36,171 bases of DNA. It comes from an uncultured Candidatus Saccharibacteria bacterium (GTDB lineage: Bacteria > Patescibacteriota > Minisyncoccia > Minisyncoccales > UBA1441). The stretch spans positions 1 to 36,171 of the forward strand of contig CAYZEC010000006.1 in NCBI GenBank assembly GCA_964477715.1, in the 5' to 3' direction. The number at the start of each line of letters is the position of its first letter. Position 1 is the stretch's first letter. Under the pieces are notes generated by a model. The model did no database searches, had not been told where the DNA came from, and saw only the letters and a program-made list of their open reading frames with translations. The position numbers and the translations under genes were made by a program. This document shows, in pieces, positions 3,215-18,539 of the stretch.

Positions 3215-3319
3215 ATTTGATTAAACGGTCAATGGGTCATGACCGTAGATTTAATATAACAAAAAAAACATCTTTTGGCAATTCACGTAAGAGAATGCCC
3301 GCGGGCCCCAGCACAATCT

Positions 3320-3558
3320 TCAGCCTCGATCGACGTGATCAGCGAAGAACTTGCCCACCAGAGATCCCAGGTAGACCGCTAGGATCATTAAGATGATCAG
3401 CACGATCTTATCCATGGCTATGACCAGGACGAGCAAGTAGCTATCGCGATTGCTCCCATTGGGATCATGATTGACAACCAAGCAGCCAATCCCACCAATA
3501 AGATGAACAATGTCATCTCCCAACCAATTCTGTTCGCCAAGAAAACAATCCTATTCAT
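3320..3558 (-). pseudogene. small multi-TM protein, frameshifted (or two peptides, 3418-3558 and 3320-3415)
   Basis: SD GGGAGG, then ATG at 3558 (MNRIVFLANRIGWEMTLFILLVGLAAWLSIMIPMGAIAIA). The hydrophobic sequence continues in another frame (YLLVLVIAMDKIVLIILMILAVYLG) to the stop at 3320. Confidence 0.5.
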
Positions 3559-3689
3559 CGTCGACACCTCCCTTTTTCAAAACAATCAGATGATCTCATA
3601 AAGAAAAAGTTCCGTCAATCAATGATGCATATCATCCATATTGACAAAACAGAATCTCGTGATTAGATAAGAGGAAAGGAGGTGGCCTC

Positions 3690-3821
3690 ATGTGGATTGC
3701 AGTACTCGGAATATTGATCATGACCGTGGCCACAGTTGCCTATATGACTTGGGTTGAAAGAATATTGATAGCCATCGCGTGGCTTATAGTGCTAATATTC
3801 TGGTGGAGACGAAAGTCGTAG
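3690..3821 (+). CDS. 43-aa two-TM micro-protein
   Basis: TTGACA at 3641, SD AAAGGAGGT, MWIAVLGILIMTVATVAYMTWVERILIAIAWLIVLIFWWRRKS, hairpin at 3833-3857. Confidence 0.7.
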   Translation: MWIAVLGILIMTVATVAYMTWVERILIAIAWLIVLIFWWRRKS

Positions 3822-3832
3822 TCATGGCCCTT

Positions 3833-3866
3833 GCCCGCAGAGATGTTTTCTGCGGGCCTTCTATTT
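3833..3866 (+). terminator. intrinsic terminator
   Basis: GCCCGCAGA/TCTGCGGGC stem followed by a T-rich tail. Confidence 0.6.
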
Positions 3867-3907
3867 AAATTGTTTTTTCTAAGAAATTATAGTAATCTAG
3901 ATAGATA

Positions 3908-3979
3908 GTCCTCGTAGCTCAACGGACAGAGCACCGGCCTGCGGAGCCGGAAATGCAGGTTCGATTCCTGCCGAGGACG
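3908..3979 (+). tRNA. tRNA-Arg(GCG), CCA not encoded
   Basis: Acceptor GTCCTCG/CGAGGAC, D arm GCTC/GAGC, anticodon arm CCGGC-CTGCGGA-GCCGG, T arm GCAGG-TTCGATT-CCTGC. Confidence 0.95.
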
Positions 3980-4090
3980 CATTTTTATATCTTCGTCATT
4001 CCTGATTCCCACCTTAGTACTATGTGCTATAATAGAAATCTGTTTCCGAACAAAATCAAATCCAGGCCAAAAGCTTGAAAGGAGGAAAGC

Positions 4091-4327
4091 ATGAAGCGCT
4101 CTTTCTGGGTGTGGGTTAAAAAACCAAGAAGAGTCACCATCGTATCTGCTTCAGGAGATTATCCGGGACAAGCAGAGATAAAAGGAGTCTGGAATGAAAA
4201 GTGGAAAACAATGAAAGCAATCTATGATGCCGTTGAAAGGCGGTTCCGCAAAAAGGGGGTGAGATGCAAGTGGTTCCAATACCATTCGCATCGTGGGACA
4301 ATCGTTGTTTCCTTCAAAGAGGATTAG
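4091..4327 (+). CDS. small basic hypothetical protein
   Basis: Extended -10 TGCTATAAT near 4026, SD AAAGGAGG, terminator at 4335-4369. Confidence 0.7.
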   Translation: MKRSFWVWVKKPRRVTIVSASGDYPGQAEIKGVWNEKWKTMKAIYDAVERRFRKKGVRCKWFQYHSHRGTIVVSFKED

Positions 4328-4334
4328 TCGTGTA

Positions 4335-4369
4335 GCCGGAAGCTCTAATTAGCGAGCTTCCGGCCTTTT
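4335..4369 (+). terminator. intrinsic terminator
   Basis: GCCGGAAGCTC/GAGCTTCCGGC stem followed by TTTT. Confidence 0.7.
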
Positions 4370-4468
4370 ATATTAAAAAAATGACGCCGAACACAATCGT
4401 CCGGCGCCGCCCCAAGAGCCAGGCCAACAACCTGCATCACACGAAGTTTGATTTAACCTACCGCCCCT

Positions 4469-4564
4469 TCAGTCTTTTCTTAGGATCCCCAAAAGGATCA
4501 ATAGAATGACCATCACGACGATCAATCCACAGACAACCAACGCTGGATTATTGAATAGTCCCAT
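4469..4564 (-). CDS. 31-aa single-TM micro-protein
   Basis: MGLFNNPALVVCGLIVVMVILLILLGILRKD; start overlaps the upstream stop (TGATG coupling). Confidence 0.6.
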   Translation of the reverse strand: MGLFNNPALVVCGLIVVMVILLILLGILRKD

Positions 4565-4674
4565 CACCCCATCCTCTTCTCAGGAAGACGAAAACGTTTC
4601 TTTCCCGTAAAGATACCGAGCGCCAGCACGATAAGGCCGAAAATCGGCATTATCACCCAGAATGAAGGATCCAT
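4564..4674 (-). CDS. 36-aa single-TM micro-protein
   Basis: TTGACA-N16-CATAAT (4738-4711), SD GGGGTGAGG, MDPSFWVIMPIFGLIVLALGIFTGKKRFRLPEKRMG. Confidence 0.65.
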   Translation of the reverse strand: MDPSFWVIMPIFGLIVLALGIFTGKKRFRLPEKRMG

Positions 4675-4831
4675 TACCTCACCCCCCTTTGGCTAATAAG
4701 ATCTAAATCTATTATGTCATCAAAATAACTCTTGTCAATCTTGGAGTAATCTTTGATTAATATCGATTCTTTAATTAACACGCTCTTGATTTGAGGATAT
4801 AAATAAACAGAGCACCAAATAAGGAGGAAGC

Positions 4832-5104
4832 ATGGAGTTCTACTTCAGAGGAAGAATAGTCACAATAATCCCACTGAAAGATCGAGGGCTTCCCAAAAGA
4901 GAAGCACATATTCCGTCCATTTGGCAATATCTCGGAGAAATACCAATCATGGATTTGATGATTTCAGCCGAGAGACATCTTCGGGATATGGGGAAGGAGG
5001 GCGTTTGCGCACATTGCAAGACTAAGAGAGATTTCCTGTCTCGTTTCGACCCAGATTACGATAGCAATGTTTGCATCACCTACTACGAACCAAGTCATAC
5101 CTAA
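4832..5104 (+). CDS. small hypothetical protein (CxxC)
   Basis: SD AAGGAGG; hairpin at 5122-5151 downstream. Confidence 0.7.
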   Translation: MEFYFRGRIVTIIPLKDRGLPKREAHIPSIWQYLGEIPIMDLMISAERHLRDMGKEGVCAHCKTKRDFLSRFDPDYDSNVCITYYEPSHT

Positions 5105-5231
5105 CACGAGTCGCGTTAAGTTAAACCGGTGGCGAAGTCGCTACCGGTTTATTCTTTTAAATTAAAATATAGCAAAACAAGGGACAATCCTTTAAATTGC
5201 CCCTAAATTAAGCCTATTTGAGTAAAACAAA

Positions 5232-6491
5232 TCAGGAAGGATCGCTAACCCGACCAATGAATAAAATACTTCCTGTTTCTTGATGTTCGATCATAAAAAC
5301 GAAGGGTCTATCAGCCTGAAAAACAGGCACCACCATTGATGCTATTTCTTCCATAATCACTGCCGTAGCGGCTGCGGCTTCTGTCCCTTCTTCATTGACT
5401 TCAACAAAAGCTTGATGGATAACATGGCTAATATAGAGATCTTTCTCTCCTGTCATGCCTGAAAAATCAGCTAAAGCTGAAAAAGCTAACGGCATTCCCA
5501 TTTGAGCTAAATCATCTTCCATGAAATATTTTGTTTCAACCTTAAAGCGAGGCAAGAATAGATCAATATCTTGCAATTCTAACGCTGAACGATATTCATC
5601 CAACTTATCTAAAGTTAAAGATTCTTCTAATTCATTTAATTGACCTAACCCGGGCAATAAAACTAACATTCTTAAGTCTTCTCCCTGATAAGGGAGCGAA
5701 AGGATTTGAACGTCGTCTATCTCCCCATAATTCACCTCTGCTTCGAATCGACTCATCATCGGCACCGACACTGATTCTTCTTCGTCTATATAAAAATCTT
5801 GATCTGTTGTTCGATCAGGATCAAATTGTTCCAGCCAATCTCCTTTAAAGTAGATGGCGTTGGTTAAAACCAACCTAGTGTCGGGGTCGATAAATCCAGT
5901 CGGAATCAAATCCTTAATCTTTTCTTGCGTCTGCCCTTCAACCCAATTGTTAATAGTCAAACGCGATTCTTCGGCCTGCGTTCTGAAATCAAGCAAACTT
6001 ACTTTACCTCGATAATATTTTTCAATCGTTCCAAAATATTCTTCCAGGAAATGATAATCCTGTTCCGGCCATAAAGCATTGGCTGTTTTTAAGATATATT
6101 TTGATTGAGGCTGATTAAAGGCATTGTAAAGCCCAGCGAATCCCGGAAGCCTAACCTCTTCACTCGGAAAATGGAATACTTGTTGCATTTCTTCGGCCGT
6201 CTCTTCTCGGGCTCCTTCATAGGTCATAGCCAAAGCAGTTACAATGCTATAAGGAGAGAAAAATATATTTTCTCCTTCATTAGCTGAATATCGCTGATAA
6301 AGATCGAGCGCAAATTGATTATTCCCCTGAACTACCTCTTGAACGTTTTTAGAATCTATCTCAACATCCGTAATTAAATTATTTTCTGGAACAGATGGAG
6401 CTTTTTGCCAAGTTCCTAAAATTAAAACAAACAGAACCGTTAATAGAGCAACTAGAATAACAATAATCAAAGCCTTTCCCTTTATTTTCAT
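5232..6491 (-). CDS. serpin (serine protease inhibitor), N-terminally anchored
   Basis: NIFFSPYSI, LVLTNAIYFKGDW, hinge EEGTEAAAATAV, FQADRPFVFMI. Confidence 0.97.
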   Translation of the reverse strand: MKIKGKALIIVILVALLTVLFVLILGTWQKAPSVPENNLITDVEIDSKNVQEVVQGNNQFALDLYQRYSANEGENIFFSPYSIVTALAMTYEGAREETAEEMQQVFHFPSEEVRLPGFAGLYNAFNQPQSKYILKTANALWPEQDYHFLEEYFGTIEKYYRGKVSLLDFRTQAEESRLTINNWVEGQTQEKIKDLIPTGFIDPDTRLVLTNAIYFKGDWLEQFDPDRTTDQDFYIDEEESVSVPMMSRFEAEVNYGEIDDVQILSLPYQGEDLRMLVLLPGLGQLNELEESLTLDKLDEYRSALELQDIDLFLPRFKVETKYFMEDDLAQMGMPLAFSALADFSGMTGEKDLYISHVIHQAFVEVNEEGTEAAAATAVIMEEIASMVVPVFQADRPFVFMIEHQETGSILFIGRVSDPS

Positions 6492-6609
6492 AAATTAAAA
6501 TATTAATTAATATCAATATATTAACTGATTATCTATTCTTTGTAAATCTATTATATCTCTATTGACAGAATAGGGATATATGTTAATATTTAGATATAGG
6601 AGGTAGCAC

Positions 6610-6909
6610 ATGAAAGAAGTCATATTCGCTGCGGGTCTGGGGATAGCCTCTCTTGGAGCGCTATCCTACCAGGCCGAAGCCGGCACATGGCTGATGGTAG
6701 CCATAGCCGTCTTCAATATCGGCTTCGCCCTCGTCGCTCGGCGACAGGGACGAGAAAGAAAGGCTATCATGATCATCGCGATCATATTAGCTCTCCTCGC
6801 CAGCACAACGGCGGCCTTCGTCACACCTAGTGGCACGATGTGGTTGTTCCTGCTTATAGGAGCAACTGACGTCGCCATGATATGGCGCTGGCGATGGAGT
6901 ACCATCTAG
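6610..6909 (+). CDS. small 4-TM membrane protein
   Basis: TTGACA-N16-TAATAT (6562-6589), SD AGGAGG, hairpin at about 6913-6955. Confidence 0.7.
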   Translation: MKEVIFAAGLGIASLGALSYQAEAGTWLMVAIAVFNIGFALVARRQGRERKAIMIIAIILALLASTTAAFVTPSGTMWLFLLIGATDVAMIWRWRWSTI

Positions 6910-6985
6910 TATCCCCCCATTGAGCACAAGGGTTTGTAACGCTCAACTGGGGGGAGTCTTTTTATTAAAATGCTATAATAAAAAC

Positions 6986-9052
6986 ATGGATTTGAATCTC
7001 GAAACAAAAACCGAAGATTTGCCTCGAATTGGTGTTGGCTATAGTCGTCGCCTGGCTGAAATAAACATTAAAACAGCTGAAGATCTTTTAAGGCATTTCC
7101 CTCATCGTTATGAGGATTTTTCAGATTTGAAAACGATTGACCAGGTTAAGGCTAATGAAAAAGTCTGTCTTCAAGGAGAAATTATCGAAATTAAAAATAC
7201 TTTTACTTATCGACGTCGCCTAATAATTACTGAAGCCTTTTTGCAAGACCAAACTGGCCAGATAAAGGCTGTTTGGTTTAATCAACCTTATTTGGCTGAT
7301 CAACTCAAAGATCAAATTGTTATTTTAGCTGGAAAAACCACTGAAAAGAAAGGAGAAATATATTTAAGCAACCCCACGGCTGAAAAATTCAACGACTCCC
7401 CGACTCATGCTGGTCGGATTGTTCCTGTTTATTCCGAGACAAAAGGGATCACTTCTCGCTGGTTAAGATATATCATTAAGCCATTGTTGGACCAATTAAA
7501 AGACAATATTGACGATCCGTTGCCTTCAGATATTAAAAAAAAGAACAAATTAATTGACCTATCTAAAGCCTTTCGGCAAATTCATTTTCCTGAAAACATG
7601 TCTGAAGCTGATGAGGCTCGCCAAAGATTGGCTTTTGAGGAACTCTTTTACATTCAGCTCAAGACTCTTCGAGCTAAGGCTACCATTAAGAAACAGATTT
7701 CATGGAAAGTTCCCGTTGAATTATCGGTTATTCAATCATTTGTTAAATCTCTCCCTTTCCAATTAACTCCTGGGCAAAAAATTGCCATTTGGCGAATTTT
7801 AAAAGACATGGATCAAGATCAACCCATGTCTCGACTACTTGAGGGCGATGTTGGTTCTGGAAAAACAGCTGTCATGATGGTTCCTGCCCTGAATGTAGCC
7901 ACTTTCGGTGGGCAAACTGCTTTGATGGCGCCAACTTCTGTTTTGGCCCGACAACATTTTGATAATCTGAAACAAATATTCAAAGATTTTCCGATTAAAA
8001 TTGGACTACTAACCGGAGAAACTTGTTACATCGGAAATAGGAAGTCTTCTTCTGAAGCGACAATCAGGCAATTAAAAGATGGAAAAATTGACTTAATCGT
8101 TGGAACTCATGCTCTTATCCAAGAAAGAGTTAAATTCAATAAACTGGTTTTCGTGGTCATTGATGAACAACATCGTTTTGGCATTCGACAAAGAGCCAGA
8201 TTGATGAAACCAGAGCAAAAAGAAAGGCCTCATTTATTATCAATGACTGCCACACCTATTCCCCGTACCCTCGCTTTAACTGTTTATGGAGACCTAGATC
8301 TTTCTTTGCTTAAAGAAAAACCAAATGGACGGAAAGAAATCATCACTCAGGTGATCAAACCTTCTCAACGTCGAGGCGCTTATCGTCTCTTGCGACAAGA
8401 AATTAAAAAAGGTCGCCAGGCTTTTGTTGTTTGCCCTCGGATTGAATCCGGATCAGAAGAAGAGCAAATTAAAACTGTTGCTAACCAATATCAAAAATTA
8501 TCAGAAGATATTTTCCCCGATTTGAAGGTTGCCCGCCTTCATGGAGGGATGAAAGCTCCGGAAAAAGAAAGGGTTCTTCGGAAATTACAAAAGAATTTAA
8601 TCAATATTCTTGTCACTACCTCAGTTATTGAAGTTGGCATTGATATCCCAAATGCCACCGTCATGATTATTGAAGGAGCAGAAAGGTTCGGTCTAGCACA
8701 ACTTCACCAAATGAGAGGGCGCATCGGTCGCTCTAACCATGAATCTTATTGCCTTCTTTTCACCAGCTCGCCTGAAATTGAAAACACTCGTCGATTATCT
8801 GCCCTAGTTAAATGCCATGATGGATTTAAATTAGCCGAAAAGGATTTAGCTATTCGTGGGCCAGGATCTTTGACTGGCCAAAATCAATGGGGCATTCCTA
8901 ACTTAGTAATGGCTAATATCGGAGACTTACCGCTAATCGAAAAAACAAGACAAGCCGCTAAAGATCTACTAGAAGAAGATCCCGAACTAAGAAAACATCC
9001 CGGATTGCTAAATAAAATAAAAGATCTAGAGACAAACGTACATTTTGAATGA
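6986..9052 (+). CDS. recG: ATP-dependent DNA helicase RecG
   Basis: RLLEGDVGSGKT, DEQHRFG, MTATPIPRTL, QLHQMRGRIGR, DLAIRGPG. Start moved to ATG 6986 because the ORF-track start at 6920 lies inside a terminator hairpin. Confidence 0.97.
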   Translation: MDLNLETKTEDLPRIGVGYSRRLAEINIKTAEDLLRHFPHRYEDFSDLKTIDQVKANEKVCLQGEIIEIKNTFTYRRRLIITEAFLQDQTGQIKAVWFNQPYLADQLKDQIVILAGKTTEKKGEIYLSNPTAEKFNDSPTHAGRIVPVYSETKGITSRWLRYIIKPLLDQLKDNIDDPLPSDIKKKNKLIDLSKAFRQIHFPENMSEADEARQRLAFEELFYIQLKTLRAKATIKKQISWKVPVELSVIQSFVKSLPFQLTPGQKIAIWRILKDMDQDQPMSRLLEGDVGSGKTAVMMVPALNVATFGGQTALMAPTSVLARQHFDNLKQIFKDFPIKIGLLTGETCYIGNRKSSSEATIRQLKDGKIDLIVGTHALIQERVKFNKLVFVVIDEQHRFGIRQRARLMKPEQKERPHLLSMTATPIPRTLALTVYGDLDLSLLKEKPNGRKEIITQVIKPSQRRGAYRLLRQEIKKGRQAFVVCPRIESGSEEEQIKTVANQYQKLSEDIFPDLKVARLHGGMKAPEKERVLRKLQKNLINILVTTSVIEVGIDIPNATVMIIEGAERFGLAQLHQMRGRIGRSNHESYCLLFTSSPEIENTRRLSALVKCHDGFKLAEKDLAIRGPGSLTGQNQWGIPNLVMANIGDLPLIEKTRQAAKDLLEEDPELRKHPGLLNKIKDLETNVHFE

Positions 9053-14864: not shown

Positions 14865-15827
14865 ATGTCCAAGTTATTAATTATTCCCATTCTGATTGTT
14901 CTTGGATTAACTATCTTCCCATTATCGATTGATCATATTTCACCCCCAGAACAAGAAACCCCCTCCCCCGAAATTAGATTATTCTTCGTAGGAGATATTA
15001 TGCTTGATCGCGGAGTTGCTTTTTACATGCAAGAAAATCAAGACTGGTTTTGGCCATTTCGAAGAATTGCTGACTTCCTGAGAAAAGCTGATCTTGTTTT
15101 TGGTAATCTTGAAAGCATGATCTCCGACAAAGGAACTAACGTTGGAAGCATTTATTCTTTTCGCGCTGATCCGGCAGTCATTCCCGGATTGAAGTTCGCC
15201 GGATTCGATATTGTTTCTGTAGCCAATAATCATAGCTTTGACTATACTCGGTCCGCTTTCGAAGACACTCTTCATCGCTTAACTGAATCTGGAATTAATT
15301 ATGTCGGAGGAGGATTTTCCGACCCAGAATCTCGTTCTCCTGTAATAAAAACCATCGCCGAAACTAAAATTGCTTTCTTGGGCTATTCTAGCGTTGGTTC
15401 GTCCTCTTGGCAGGCAACATCAGAAACCCCTGGCATTGCCTGGTTGGACATTGAAGAAATAGAAAGATTTAAGCAAGATATCTACTCCGCTCAAGAGAAA
15501 TCAGACATTCTGATTGTTTCTATCCACTTTGGAGAAGAATATCAATTTGAACCAAGTCCAAGCCAAAGAATTTTAGCCGAAACAGCCATTGAAGCCGGAG
15601 CCGATCTAGTTGTCGGCCACCATCCTCACGTTCTCCAACCGCTCGAGCAATATCACCAAGGATGGATCGCCTACAGTTTAGGTAATTTTATTTTCGATCA
15701 ATATTTTTCTTCTGAAACTATGAAATCTGCTATTTTAGAAGTAACTGTTCAAGACAAAAACATCACCAACCTAAATCTTATTCCGGTTGCTTTGACTGAA
15801 GAGTATCAAGTTTATTTGAGCAATTAA
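14865..15827 (+). CDS. CapA/PgsA-family metallophosphatase-like protein
   Basis: FVGDIMLDR, GNLES, SVANNHSFDY, SIHFGEEY, GHHPHVLQ, YSLGNFIF. Confidence 0.92.
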   Translation: MSKLLIIPILIVLGLTIFPLSIDHISPPEQETPSPEIRLFFVGDIMLDRGVAFYMQENQDWFWPFRRIADFLRKADLVFGNLESMISDKGTNVGSIYSFRADPAVIPGLKFAGFDIVSVANNHSFDYTRSAFEDTLHRLTESGINYVGGGFSDPESRSPVIKTIAETKIAFLGYSSVGSSSWQATSETPGIAWLDIEEIERFKQDIYSAQEKSDILIVSIHFGEEYQFEPSPSQRILAETAIEAGADLVVGHHPHVLQPLEQYHQGWIAYSLGNFIFDQYFSSETMKSAILEVTVQDKNITNLNLIPVALTEEYQVYLSN

Positions 15828-16495
15828 ATATTTGGATCAAGCGGTAAGCTCCGATTCAGAGACTTTTCTTTTTTCCAAACAATTGAACCCCAAAGAACGT
15901 AAAATATGATTGATCCGATTCCGGGAGTCAACAGGGCTAAGGCCCACCATTCCGGACAATTAATCCGAGTACAAATCTTTAAATGCCAGAAGAAGATGAA
16001 AACTGACAAAGCGGTTATAGAGAATATATTGACCACCGGAATGAAGAAGGTCAGGATTAATAACATGGGCCACCAGTGCATCTTAGCCATTCGGCTCATC
16101 AAATAAAGATTAAAGAGCGGGATCCAGGCAAACCAAGCATGACGAACACCTAATTTTTGAGCTAATTTCATATAAACTAAAGAAACGTAAACGTACATGC
16201 CTATTATCATCAATATAATCAGCGGAATAAAGAAAACCATCAACGTGGCAAAAATCGTTAAAAAGGTTTCTAATTTTTCAACTCCTGCTGGGATCCTGGT
16301 TGTTTCCTCTAAAAAATTAGTAAGAGCAACGCCCGATATATCATATAAATCATAATCCATGAGATTCTCTCCATCGATTATGGAGTCGAAAGATTCTTCT
16401 AGTGAAATTTCAGCAGAAGTAGGACTCGAGATAATCATTAGTCCAAATAAAATCAAACTAATGATCGATATTAATTTAAAGGCACTTTTTTCCAT
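15824..16495 (-). CDS. multi-TM membrane protein (DUF5684-like)
   Basis: KLGVRHAWFAWIPLFNLY motif and several TM helices. Confidence 0.65.
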   Translation of the reverse strand: MEKSAFKLISIISLILFGLMIISSPTSAEISLEESFDSIIDGENLMDYDLYDISGVALTNFLEETTRIPAGVEKLETFLTIFATLMVFFIPLIILMIIGMYVYVSLVYMKLAQKLGVRHAWFAWIPLFNLYLMSRMAKMHWWPMLLILTFFIPVVNIFSITALSVFIFFWHLKICTRINCPEWWALALLTPGIGSIIFYVLWGSIVWKKEKSLNRSLPLDPNI

Positions 16496-16587
16496 AAAAA
16501 ATAAGATTAATTGAACTTATTGTATCACAAACATGATAATAAATAATCATCCTCTTGCGATTTTTAAAAAGCATGGTAATGTAAAGG

Positions 16588-16728
16588 TATCAGGATTTAC
16601 CTCCTATGGGTCTCTGGAGCGAGAGAGCGGTAACGTTTCTGCGCGCAAGAGCTAGGCACAAGCCTAAACGGTGCCGCCTCTCTCTCCAGATCGACAAAGA
16701 CTCTCGTGTGGGTACGCGAGAGTTTTTC
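16588..16728 (+). ncRNA. candidate structured sRNA 1
   Basis: TTGCGA-N16-TAATGT promoter; long stem 16613-16630/16674-16690 enclosing TAGGC-ACAA-GCCTA; terminator at 16697-16727. Confidence 0.5.
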
Positions 16729-16765
16729 ATATATTGACCGCCGAAAAATCCATGATACAATGGAG

Positions 16766-16862
16766 CTAGGAAGAAATGCCCATCCCGATCTCAAAAATGT
16801 CGGATCAAGCTTTCTTCCGATGGTATAGGACTCTCGCTGTATGCGAGAGTCTTTTCTTTTTT
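16766..16862 (+). ncRNA. candidate sRNA 2
   Basis: TTGACC-N16-TACAAT (16734-16761); stem GGAAGAAA/TTTCTTCC; terminator at 16827-16862. Confidence 0.5.
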
Positions 16863-16985
16863 AATAAGATATAAATCAAATCCTTCCTTTAAAAAGATCT
16901 GATAATAATATGATTCTCTGTGAATCTTCTTCTTGAAATACAAGTGTGTTGCTTGACAAATAAGATAAATAAAATATAATTAATG

Positions 16986-17104
16986 ACTGTTGTATCGAGA
17001 AAAGGGAGAGAGGGGTCAACGAACCCGAACGAATCACCACCTGGACACGAACACGACCCCTCCTCCCCACATGTATCCTCGCTATGTAGCGGGGATTTTT
17101 CTTT
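16986..17104 (+). ncRNA. candidate sRNA 3
   Basis: TTGACA-N16-TATAAT (16953-16980); stem 17004-17017/17055-17067 with a 37-nt A/C-rich loop; terminator at 17075-17100. Confidence 0.6.
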
Positions 17105-17159
17105 ATATAAAACAAAAAAGAACGGAATTGCACACCTTCCGTTCTTTTGTTTTTGAGAA

Positions 17160-17429
17160 TTAGTAGCGACGATCGTCGCGGGGTTTGGGCGGCTTGGCCT
17201 CGCTTACAGCGATGGTGCGGCTGCCTAATTGATGACCATCTAATTCAGTGATTGCCTTAGCGGCATCCTCTTCATTCTTATAGGTCACAAATCCGAAACC
17301 TTTGGATCGGCCAGCGTGGTCGGTGATAATAATCGCCTCTTCCACTTCGCCTAGACCAGCAAAGAGCGATTTAAGCTCATCTTCGGTCGTATTCCAATCA
17401 AGGCTTCCAACAAAAAGCTTTTTTGGCAT
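17160..17429 (-). CDS. RRM-domain RNA-binding protein
   Basis: RNP2 LFVGSL, RNP1 KGFGFVTY. Confidence 0.95.
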   Translation of the reverse strand: MPKKLFVGSLDWNTTEDELKSLFAGLGEVEEAIIITDHAGRSKGFGFVTYKNEEDAAKAITELDGHQLGSRTIAVSEAKPPKPRDDRRY

Positions 17430-17561
17430 AAATTTAATTAACTAATATAGACTACACTTTAACCCCGTGTTTCGATACGTCGTAGAACTAATTGTGCGCA
17501 TTCTTTCTACTTTCTCAGAAAGACGAAGTTACGGCTCAGTATGATATATCTACTGATAAAG

Positions 17562-17819
17562 TCAAGGAGTAATTTCTGGTTCTGGCAAGTTATCGGCAGG
17601 AAGATCAGGTTGTATCTCTTCCTCGACACATGGCTCCTCCCAAATTCTGAGACATTTCTGCTTCGGCTCACACCAACTATAACCAGCAGCTATTAAACAG
17701 CCATGCTCATCTGTTTCACCGCCAATTAATGGCTCTTCTCCTTGATTTCGAGCCAATAACCACCATAATCCAGCAGCAATAATTAAAATAATAACTAACC
17801 AAATAATTATTTTTTTCAT
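17562..17819 (-). CDS. small membrane-anchored Cys-rich protein
   Basis: TM followed by GGETDEHGCLIAAGYSWCEPKQKCLRIWEEPC. Confidence 0.8.
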   Translation of the reverse strand: MKKIIIWLVIILIIAAGLWWLLARNQGEEPLIGGETDEHGCLIAAGYSWCEPKQKCLRIWEEPCVEEEIQPDLPADNLPEPEITP

Positions 17820-17891
17820 ATGTTTTAATTAATAATTGAAACGATTGCTATTTTACTCCCGACCTAAAGAAAGTCAAAGTTTTAGACGCTA

Positions 17892-18539
17892 TCAAGATTG
17901 TGAATTGTGAAAATAATCTGCTATTGCTAACTCGAGATCAATTAGCTGTTCTACTATTCTAAAATATCTACCTTTTTCTAATTGTTCGCGCTTATTGAAT
18001 CCCCAAGTAACTCCTATTACCTGAACATCAACTTGCTCTGCTTCGCGCATATCACCTAAAGTATCGGTTACAAAAACACAATTTTTGGATTCAAGATTGT
18101 GCTTAGAGAAAATTGTATTCATTTTCACAACTTTGCTATGGTGAATATCGTTACCCATTATCTCTACAAAACAATCAGCTAGGCTATATTTTTTCAGAAA
18201 TTCTTGGATCCCTTTAGTAATAGTTGAAGAAATGATAAATAATTTATATTCTTGGGTCAATCTTGTAATCAATTCATCCATCTCATTAAATAATTTTACT
18301 TCTTCTTTCATTCTGGGAATATAGTGGTCAAAAAAATCGTAGCTCCCATTATATCCAACTGCCGCTAGACGATCAGCCCAACCCCAATCATTAACATTGC
18401 CTTCCAGAATTTGACGATAATCATCTTTTGTCATATCAGTAAAGACGGATTTATGAATATCGAATGCTGTTTGGAAAGAATCGGCAATTACTCCATCAAA
18501 ATCAAAGAAAATAGACTTCTTTATTTCAGATTCATTCAT
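17892..18539 (-). CDS. HAD-family hydrolase
   Basis: Motif I FDFDGVIADS, FVTDTLGD, IGVTWGF. Confidence 0.92.
   Translation of the reverse strand: MNESEIKKSIFFDFDGVIADSFQTAFDIHKSVFTDMTKDDYRQILEGNVNDWGWADRLAAVGYNGSYDFFDHYIPRMKEEVKLFNEMDELITRLTQEYKLFIISSTITKGIQEFLKKYSLADCFVEIMGNDIHHSKVVKMNTIFSKHNLESKNCVFVTDTLGDMREAEQVDVQVIGVTWGFNKREQLEKGRYFRIVEQLIDLELAIADYFHNSQS

Follow-up and report, generated by a model that had tools for sequence, protein, structure and literature searches.

The locus described here raises the question of what is encoded in a 664-bp gap, bounded by open reading frames, at positions 16496-17159 of the analyzed DNA. The window, that is, the whole stretch of 36,171 nucleotides, represents contig C6 of a source genome (G000) of 485 kb, which is distributed over 28 contigs, is rated 94.8% complete and has a GC content of 38%. 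The gap is flanked on the left by a minus-strand gene for a 223-aa membrane protein with a weak match to DUF5684 (15824-16495), and on the right by a minus-strand gene for an 89-aa RRM_1 protein (17160-17429), the sole RRM_1 match in the genome. The first-pass annotation had described a gap of about 660 bp with three GC-rich blocks, forming a cluster that converges on the RRM gene. Both observations were confirmed: the gap holds three hairpin/terminator units on the plus strand, and the strands of the flanking ORFs together with the orientation of the units show that the units point at the 3' end of the RRM gene. The GC content, calculated in 60-nt windows, is 0.55-0.58 over units 1 and 3, 0.43-0.47 over unit 2 and approximately 0.2-0.3 in the spacers. 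The possibility that the gap is a minus-strand leader of the DUF5684-like gene was rejected, since this gene has its own extended -10 element (TGATACAAT, 16527->16519) located 24 nt upstream of its ATG. Four sets of DNA contigs that cover the locus represent near-identical strains only, with two single-base variants. A single C>T substitution at window position 16766, just upstream of the predicted start of unit 2, is found in two DNA contig sets, and the runs carrying it may be the source of the present assembly.

Each unit combines a candidate promoter, a hairpin and an intrinsic terminator, all on the plus strand. Unit 1 has two weak candidate promoters, TTGAAC-18-GATAAT (16511-16540; 9/12 consensus matches) and TTGCGA-16-TAATGT with an upstream TG (16555-16582; 7/12, missed by the promoter scan). 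The single-stranded 5' part of this unit contains ACCUCCU (16599-16605; mean unpaired probability 0.43), which resembles the anti-Shine-Dalgarno (anti-SD) tail. It is followed by a long predicted hairpin (16610-16695), composed of a purine-rich 5' arm CUGGAGCGAGAGAGCGG and a CU-rich 3' arm CCGCCUCUCUCUCCAG, and by the terminator GACUCUCG-loop-CGAGAGU with a subsequent UUUUU (16699-16728). Unit 2 starts with an extended -10 promoter (TTGACC-16-TACAAT with an upstream TG, 16734-16761; 10/12), followed by a predicted hairpin in which AGGAAGAAAUGC pairs with GCUUUCUUCC (16768-16824) and by the terminator GGACUCUCGC-UGUAU-GCGAGAGUC with a U tail (16827-16862). Unit 3 possesses a perfect promoter (TTGACA-16-TATAAT, 16953-16980; 12/12), a predicted hairpin formed by GGGAGAGAGGGGUC and GACCCCUCCUCCCC (17004-17068) with AUCACC in its apical part (17033-17038), and the terminator AUCCUCGCU-AUGU-AGCGGGGAU followed by a U tail (17075-17104). 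Thus, of the promoters proposed for every unit by the first-pass annotation, those of units 2 and 3 stand, while the 7/12 site proposed for unit 1 is weak. The U-tailed terminators hold for all three units: that of unit 2 was found by the terminator scan and folding, that of unit 3 by the terminator scan and our hairpin script, and that of unit 1 by the script and folding.

The RNAs predicted from units 1, 2 and 3 are about 140, 95 and 118 nt long, in agreement with the earlier estimates of about 140, 95 and 115 nt. All three are predicted to fold into unusually stable structures on the plus strand (z = -5.4, -5.3 and -3.0, respectively), and none of 200 shuffled sequences was as stable. Over the wider 3-kb region 15500-18500, neither promoter-like sites (14 versus 10.1 +/- 3.0 in shuffles) nor terminator-like sites show an overall enrichment. 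A hairpin of the form GACTCTCG...CGAGAGT occurs in units 1 and 2 only within the entire 485-kb genome. The 3' modules of these two units share direct repeats of 27 nt (70% identity) and 16 nt (88%), which supports the previously suggested common ancestry of their terminators; this ancestry extends to the units of other genomes, as described below. In a BLASTN search of the gap against its own genome, the units were not alignable by sequence. Outside the cluster, two orphan units built alike, with a promoter, a C-rich hairpin and a terminator, were observed at approximately 18300-18445 of contig C24 in G000 and at approximately 1400-1560 of locus L074 (contig C2 of the related genome G001).

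Known RNA families do not account for the units. At the gathering thresholds, Rfam 15 identified only two tRNAs in the whole window, both outside the gap; within the gap the best match at E up to 10 scored 21.9 bits against a threshold of 99, and the corresponding loci of six relatives yielded one tRNA only at E up to 0.1. Two specific identities were rejected. The SRP RNA (RF00169, RF01854) was excluded because its models have no match in the gap, elsewhere in G000 or in the relatives, and because its partner Ffh, as well as FtsY, was not found in G000. For the 6S RNA (RF00013), too, the model found no match, either in the gap or in the rest of G000. It is highly improbable that one of the units is a divergent housekeeping RNA of the 6S type that escaped the Rfam models. 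Such an escape is conceivable, as searches of the whole genome revealed no 6S RNA and 6S RNAs are poorly conserved in sequence. However, the gap has no 6S or SRP match even at E up to 10, the units (95-140 nt) are shorter than 6S RNA (about 180 nt), their predicted folds have no 6S-like rod with a large central bubble, and their copy number varies from one to four between lineages. An SRP RNA is not expected in a genome lacking Ffh and FtsY, and the RNase P RNA and tmRNA are encoded on other contigs. No regular direct repeats with spacers and no tandem array were found in the gap, so a CRISPR- or TIGR-type guide array was rejected as well.

The SRP searches gave an observation in its own right: the SRP pathway appears to be missing in G000 and 40 relatives from the same order. 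None of the 41 genomes, which include a one-contig genome and several genomes rated as 100% complete, gave a match to the SRP54-type GTPase domain of Ffh and FtsY. The RNA models RF00169 and RF01854 had no match in 31 and 13 genomes, respectively, and the SRP_SPB domain was not found in G000. A tblastn search of G000 with the E. coli Ffh gave a best E-value of 0.25, compared with 6e-48 for TrmD and 1e-16 for L19. The literature matches listed contained nothing on a missing SRP pathway.

A protein-coding role of the units can be given next to no weight. The gap does contain ORFs of 32-85 aa, including plus-strand frames of 32-57 aa, and one of these, a 32-aa frame (16776-16874), is preceded by AGGAAG. 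However, this frame reads through the terminator, and most genes in G000 have no SD sequence at all. A tblastn comparison of 19 open stretches of the gap with the gaps of five relatives revealed no conserved frame within the units: the only match below E 0.01 inside a unit (E 0.008) falls on the terminator end of the unit in locus L053, and all matches better than E 1e-3 map to the conserved terminator of the RRM gene, where they occur on both strands and in several reading frames. Insertions and deletions occur within the unit between the loci L052 and L050, which further argues against a conserved peptide. The absence of a credible coding ORF, as proposed in the first-pass annotation, is thus supported.

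The gap sequence itself is barely conserved. A BLASTN search against 61 genomes aligned its last 60 bases, which correspond to the two-way terminator of the RRM gene, and did not align the units. Since BLASTN detects the RRM terminator alone, the units are not alignable by sequence. Nevertheless, the gene order (DUF5684-like gene, gap, RRM gene) is kept in the loci of relatives; by tblastn, the DUF5684-like gene adjoins the units in all five complete relative loci. Each of the five related lineages with an ortholog of the RRM gene has one to four units at the syntenic position: three in G001, a member of the same genus, in which the first unit has two hairpins; two in G007; and one each in G010 (locus L051), G006 (L053) and L052, the complete locus closest to G004, whose own contig is cut. 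The loci L047 and L049 duplicate those of G010 and G006 and were excluded from all counts, and the cut locus L050 was excluded from the motif tests. Pattern scans that included the conserved RRM terminator found four loci in genome contigs and three in metagenome contigs, and no more.

The architecture of the units is retained across these loci. A promoter matching at least 10 of 12 consensus positions lies just upstream of 8 of the 11 full units, two others have a 9/12 promoter and one has none by the rule applied, although the closeness of promoter and unit results by construction, since unit starts were set just after the -10 element. All nine units of the relatives fold with z between -3.0 and -9.2 (40 shuffles each), and the motif GGUGACGU is present in the units of G001. 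Between G000 and G001, identity is 85% for the RRM coding sequence, 83% for its 5' UTR and promoter and 57% for the membrane protein coding sequence, and drops to 39% in the gap. Neutral sequence at 39% identity and 38% GC would lose its GC-rich hairpins, promoters and terminators, which argues that the architecture is under selection. Twelve units have 3' modules that can be aligned; in these, a CU-rich tract and a linker precede GACUCUCGC, which is separated by a GU-rich loop from GCGAGAGUC and a U tail. In this alignment, 5 of the 10 pairs of the terminator helix have changes on both sides, and 80% of the helix cells form pairs, versus 35-59% when the partner strand is slid. In the body hairpins, compensatory pairs were found in two cases between L052 and L050 and in one case between L051 and L053. 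Covariation in relatives, a check that the earlier annotation had proposed, thus takes the form of compensatory changes; it is thin, being drawn from pairs of sequences and from 12 related terminators, but goes in the expected direction.

The conservation of one to four units at the same spot in relatives indicates a real, fast-evolving family. With no match in Rfam, no conserved peptide and an architecture kept in relatives, the three units are quite probably non-coding sRNA genes. The comparison of genomes, as judged from sequence, therefore lends weight to the undescribed sRNA cluster proposed at the outset, whose architecture is kept in five other lineages. The putative family is restricted to one small clade within the ultra-small Patescibacteria.

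The distribution of the units follows that of one particular RRM gene. Orthologs of this gene with 81-98% identity are present in G001, G004, G006, G007 and G010; G003, G005, G009 and G011 possess only paralogs with 47-55% identity, and no match was found in G002 and G008. Among 201 sampled genomes of the order, G000, G001 and G007 alone reach E 1e-25. R1, a covariance model built from the 3' modules, matches 6 of the 12 family genomes, exactly those with an RRM ortholog (at least 81% identity), and none of the six genomes without it; because the positives are mostly the training sequences of R1, the informative part of this result is the six negatives and one new copy in G001. This extra copy, the orphan unit in L074, is a weak match (E 0.022) at another locus, with its own 12/12 promoter and a terminator with a UGU loop, and has no RRM gene beside it within the stretch examined. 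The six genomes with both the RRM ortholog and the units probably form one clade, and thus the co-occurrence of these adjacent features corresponds to roughly one evolutionary event. The gaps downstream of the paralogous RRM genes are short (82-277 bp), the UTRs of these genes are different, and no units were seen in these gaps. Searches of G000 for Hfq and CsrA gave no match.

The regulatory elements of the RRM gene are themselves well-conserved. Its promoter (TTGACT-16-CATACT) and a 5' UTR of approximately 105 nt, which contains a conserved hairpin with the loop AAUGCGCACAAUU, occupy 17430-17565 on the minus strand. At its 3' end, a hairpin at 17110-17154, identified from the sequence by script, can act as a terminator in both directions and carries the loop GGUGUGCAA on the strand of the RRM mRNA. 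Five other family genomes share this hairpin at 86-98% identity, and its loop is kept in five of the six lineages, with GGUGCGCAA in G007. The promoter, the 5'-UTR hairpin and the terminator are kept across the six lineages and are absent from the paralogous RRM genes; these elements are possibly autoregulatory sites. The terminator loops of the sRNA units are GU-rich and resemble the conserved loop of the RRM mRNA terminator. UGU or GUG occurs at the apex of 9 of 10 unit terminators, excluding two terminators from G007 that were missed by the perfect-stem rule of the script, versus 13 of 108 other terminator-like hairpins in G000. The corresponding Fisher value of 5e-7 is overstated, because the motif was chosen after viewing the data and the compared terminators are homologous. 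The first-pass annotation had suggested that the RNAs are RRM ligands. We retain this idea tentatively: the co-occurrence, the presence of a single RRM gene and the shared GU-rich terminator loops are consistent with a possible interaction.

The position of the units also suggests a different function, in which they would serve as transcription insulators: their strong convergent promoters, together with the stacked terminators, would keep transcription of the heavily transcribed RRM gene from running on into the DUF5684-like gene, and the RNAs would be by-products. The arrangement fits, given that the units lie between two minus-strand genes and run towards the 3' end of the RRM gene, and little conservation of primary sequence would be expected of such a device. 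The RRM terminator, which works in both directions, is also in line with it. We nevertheless consider insulation unlikely. A single terminator would suffice for this purpose, yet long GC-rich helices are kept in a genome with 38% GC; the motifs CCUCC, AUCACC and GACUCUCGC are retained across lineages; and the additional R1 unit of G001 lies apart from any RRM gene in the stretch examined.

Retained motifs, in turn, point to a possible target of the proposed sRNAs. The units contain 14 copies of CCUCC versus 4.1 in dinucleotide shuffles (none of 1000 shuffles reached 14), and five copies of ACCUCC versus 0.6. Counted by lineage, CCTCC is present in six of six and ATCACC in four of six (shuffle mean 0.23). 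Together, CCUCC and AUCACC spell the canonical anti-SD tail, which in the E. coli 16S rRNA reads GGAUCACCUCCUUA. For most copies of CCUCC, which form part of the paired long helix, the probability of being unpaired is 0.0-0.1; in each lineage a single copy is partly open, at 0.39-0.79. Tail-like strings, namely AUCACCUCCU in unit C of G001 and AUCACCCUUUCU in L053, are located in 3' arms that pair with 5' arms of the GGAGG type.

The ribosome of these bacteria has itself lost this tail. CCUCC after helix 45 is absent from all nine 16S rRNA genes found in the 12 family genomes. A loss of the anti-SD sequence has already been published for a subgroup of Parcubacteria (PMC9297842). The 3' end of the 16S rRNA in G000 is located at approximately 13029-13090 of contig C15, and a conserved hairpin with the loop YCCUUUCY was observed about 100 nt downstream in the family. 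Three genera of the family, g2, g3 and g5, have neither the unit cluster nor the 16S anti-SD tail; hence the RNAs are no required replacement for the tail.

Translation starts in G000 are mostly SD-less. GGAGG precedes only 11 of 345 long ORFs, and the usual start context is AT-rich (AATTAA-type). TATAAT occurs within 22 nt of 20 starts versus 2.6 expected, which suggests leaderless mRNAs or mRNAs with very short leaders. At the same time, AGGAGG is 10.8-fold enriched upstream of long ORFs, and about 30 genes, many of them hypothetical or phage-like, carry strong and properly spaced AAGGAGG-type sites. Of 20 such genes scanned, 10 have no Pfam family; among the others are a phage portal protein, dCTP deaminase, a ThyX-like protein, NDK, MurD and PGK. 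Positions 3215-7000 of the window contain consecutive small ORFs (43-99 aa) that have strong AAGGAGG sites, together with GC-rich segments; three of these ORFs (78, 90 and 99 aa) were scanned and none has a Pfam family, and this segment may be acquired DNA.

With these data, it is conceivable though doubtful that the units act through pairing of CCUCC, as suggested by the enrichment of this motif. A more far-reaching version, which we consider quite unlikely, is that the sRNA family keeps the lost tail in a form similar to AUCACCUCCU and, together with the sole RRM protein, constitutes a trans-acting 'anti-SD' particle selecting the approximately 30 AGGAGG mRNAs; if true, this particle would either silence these mRNAs or dock them on the SD-blind ribosome. 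Very unlikely in our view is a direct ribosomal role, in which the purine/pyrimidine helix would mimic the SD:anti-SD duplex, so that the RNAs either fill the empty pocket of the 30S platform or supply the anti-SD in trans. The pairing of the tail-like 3' arms in G001 and L053 with GGAGG-type 5' arms resembles such a duplex, the 16S rRNA lacks the tail, and helix h26, which contacts the SD helix, is still conserved in Parcubacteria without the anti-SD motif, its role being described as unknown (PMC9297842). On the other hand, the genera g2, g3 and g5 manage without both the tail and the RNAs, the mechanism has no precedent, and the motif enrichment could simply be due to the shared ancestry of a CU-rich helix strand.

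The reading of the units as sibling sRNAs is in line with several described systems. The sRNAs OmrA/OmrB, Qrr, LhrC1-7 and the Cia-dependent csRNAs are encoded by genes duplicated head to tail, each with its own promoter and terminator, and share a conserved seed. These groups are listed as tandem siblings in PMC11697453. The units described here resemble them in being head-to-tail copies with their own promoter (weak in unit 1) and intrinsic terminator, and with paralogy in part of the sequence, as seen from the repeats of units 1 and 2 and the 12 aligned modules; they also appear to be non-coding and have no co-oriented downstream gene. However, the known tandem siblings keep their seed, whereas in the present family nearly everything except the 3' module was turned over within one genus. 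RsaE/RoxS (Rfam RF01820) represents sRNAs with C-rich, anti-SD seeds. The units share with it CCUCC-type motifs that could cover purine-rich ribosome-binding sites, and differ in that they have no covariance-model match, their CCUCC is mostly paired apart from the partly open copy in each lineage, and the host ribosome lacks the anti-SD tail.

Bacteroides rarely uses SD pairing, and rare SD use is thus a likeness between this genus and G000, in which it was measured here. The closest described system appears to be one from this genus, formed by RbpB and the FopS sRNAs, with no sequence relation to the units (PMC11697453). In Bacteroides thetaiotaomicron, FopS / GibS are multicopy sRNAs that operate with the single-RRM protein RbpB (PMC11697453). 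The similarities include a paralogous sRNA family, the lack of Hfq, a small protein with one RRM as candidate partner, and an own promoter and intrinsic terminator for each sRNA (PMC11697453). The differences are also pronounced: the 14 FopS copies are scattered over the genome, whereas the present units are in tandem and linked to the RRM gene; FopS consists of a single-stranded 5' seed and a terminator, whereas the units have a long GC-rich helix; and RNA binding by RbpB was demonstrated by CLIP and EMSA (PMC11697453), whereas binding by the RRM protein studied here is suggested by gene linkage and loop motifs. The FopS family is deposited in Rfam according to its paper (PMC11697453). No sequence-structure match to FopS/GibS, nor to any other Rfam family, was found in the gap.

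Taken as a whole, the locus is best explained, in our opinion and with moderate confidence, by a tandem family of fast-evolving sibling sRNAs that is co-inherited with the RRM gene; a mechanism involving the RRM protein and CCUCC may be proposed in addition. According to this model, the gap would yield three separate plus-strand small RNAs of approximately 140, 95 and 118 nt. In each RNA, a long helix whose 5' strand is rich in purines and whose 3' strand is CU-rich would end in a variable apical part, and a short linker would lead to a homologous terminator (GACUCUCGC / GCGAGAGUC) whose loop is GU-rich. Within the clade, the family would be inherited together with one particular RRM gene, whose product may bind the RNAs. 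Plausible binding sites are the GU-rich loops of their terminators, which are similar to the terminator loop of the RRM mRNA itself. The RNAs could then act in trans, through their CCUCC / AUCACC tracts, on SD-like purine-rich leaders, and the candidate targets would be the minority of mRNAs still bearing AGGAGG.

To our knowledge, almost nothing is known about post-transcriptional control in ultra-small uncultured Patescibacteria, and literature searches on sRNAs or RRM proteins of this group gave nothing relevant among the matches listed. The locus provides a concrete candidate pair of protein and RNA, composed of one small RRM protein and one to four adjoining putative sRNAs in several genera. 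If the CCUCC / AUCACC tracts are functional, this locus would show the fate of SD-type recognition after the ribosome gave it up.
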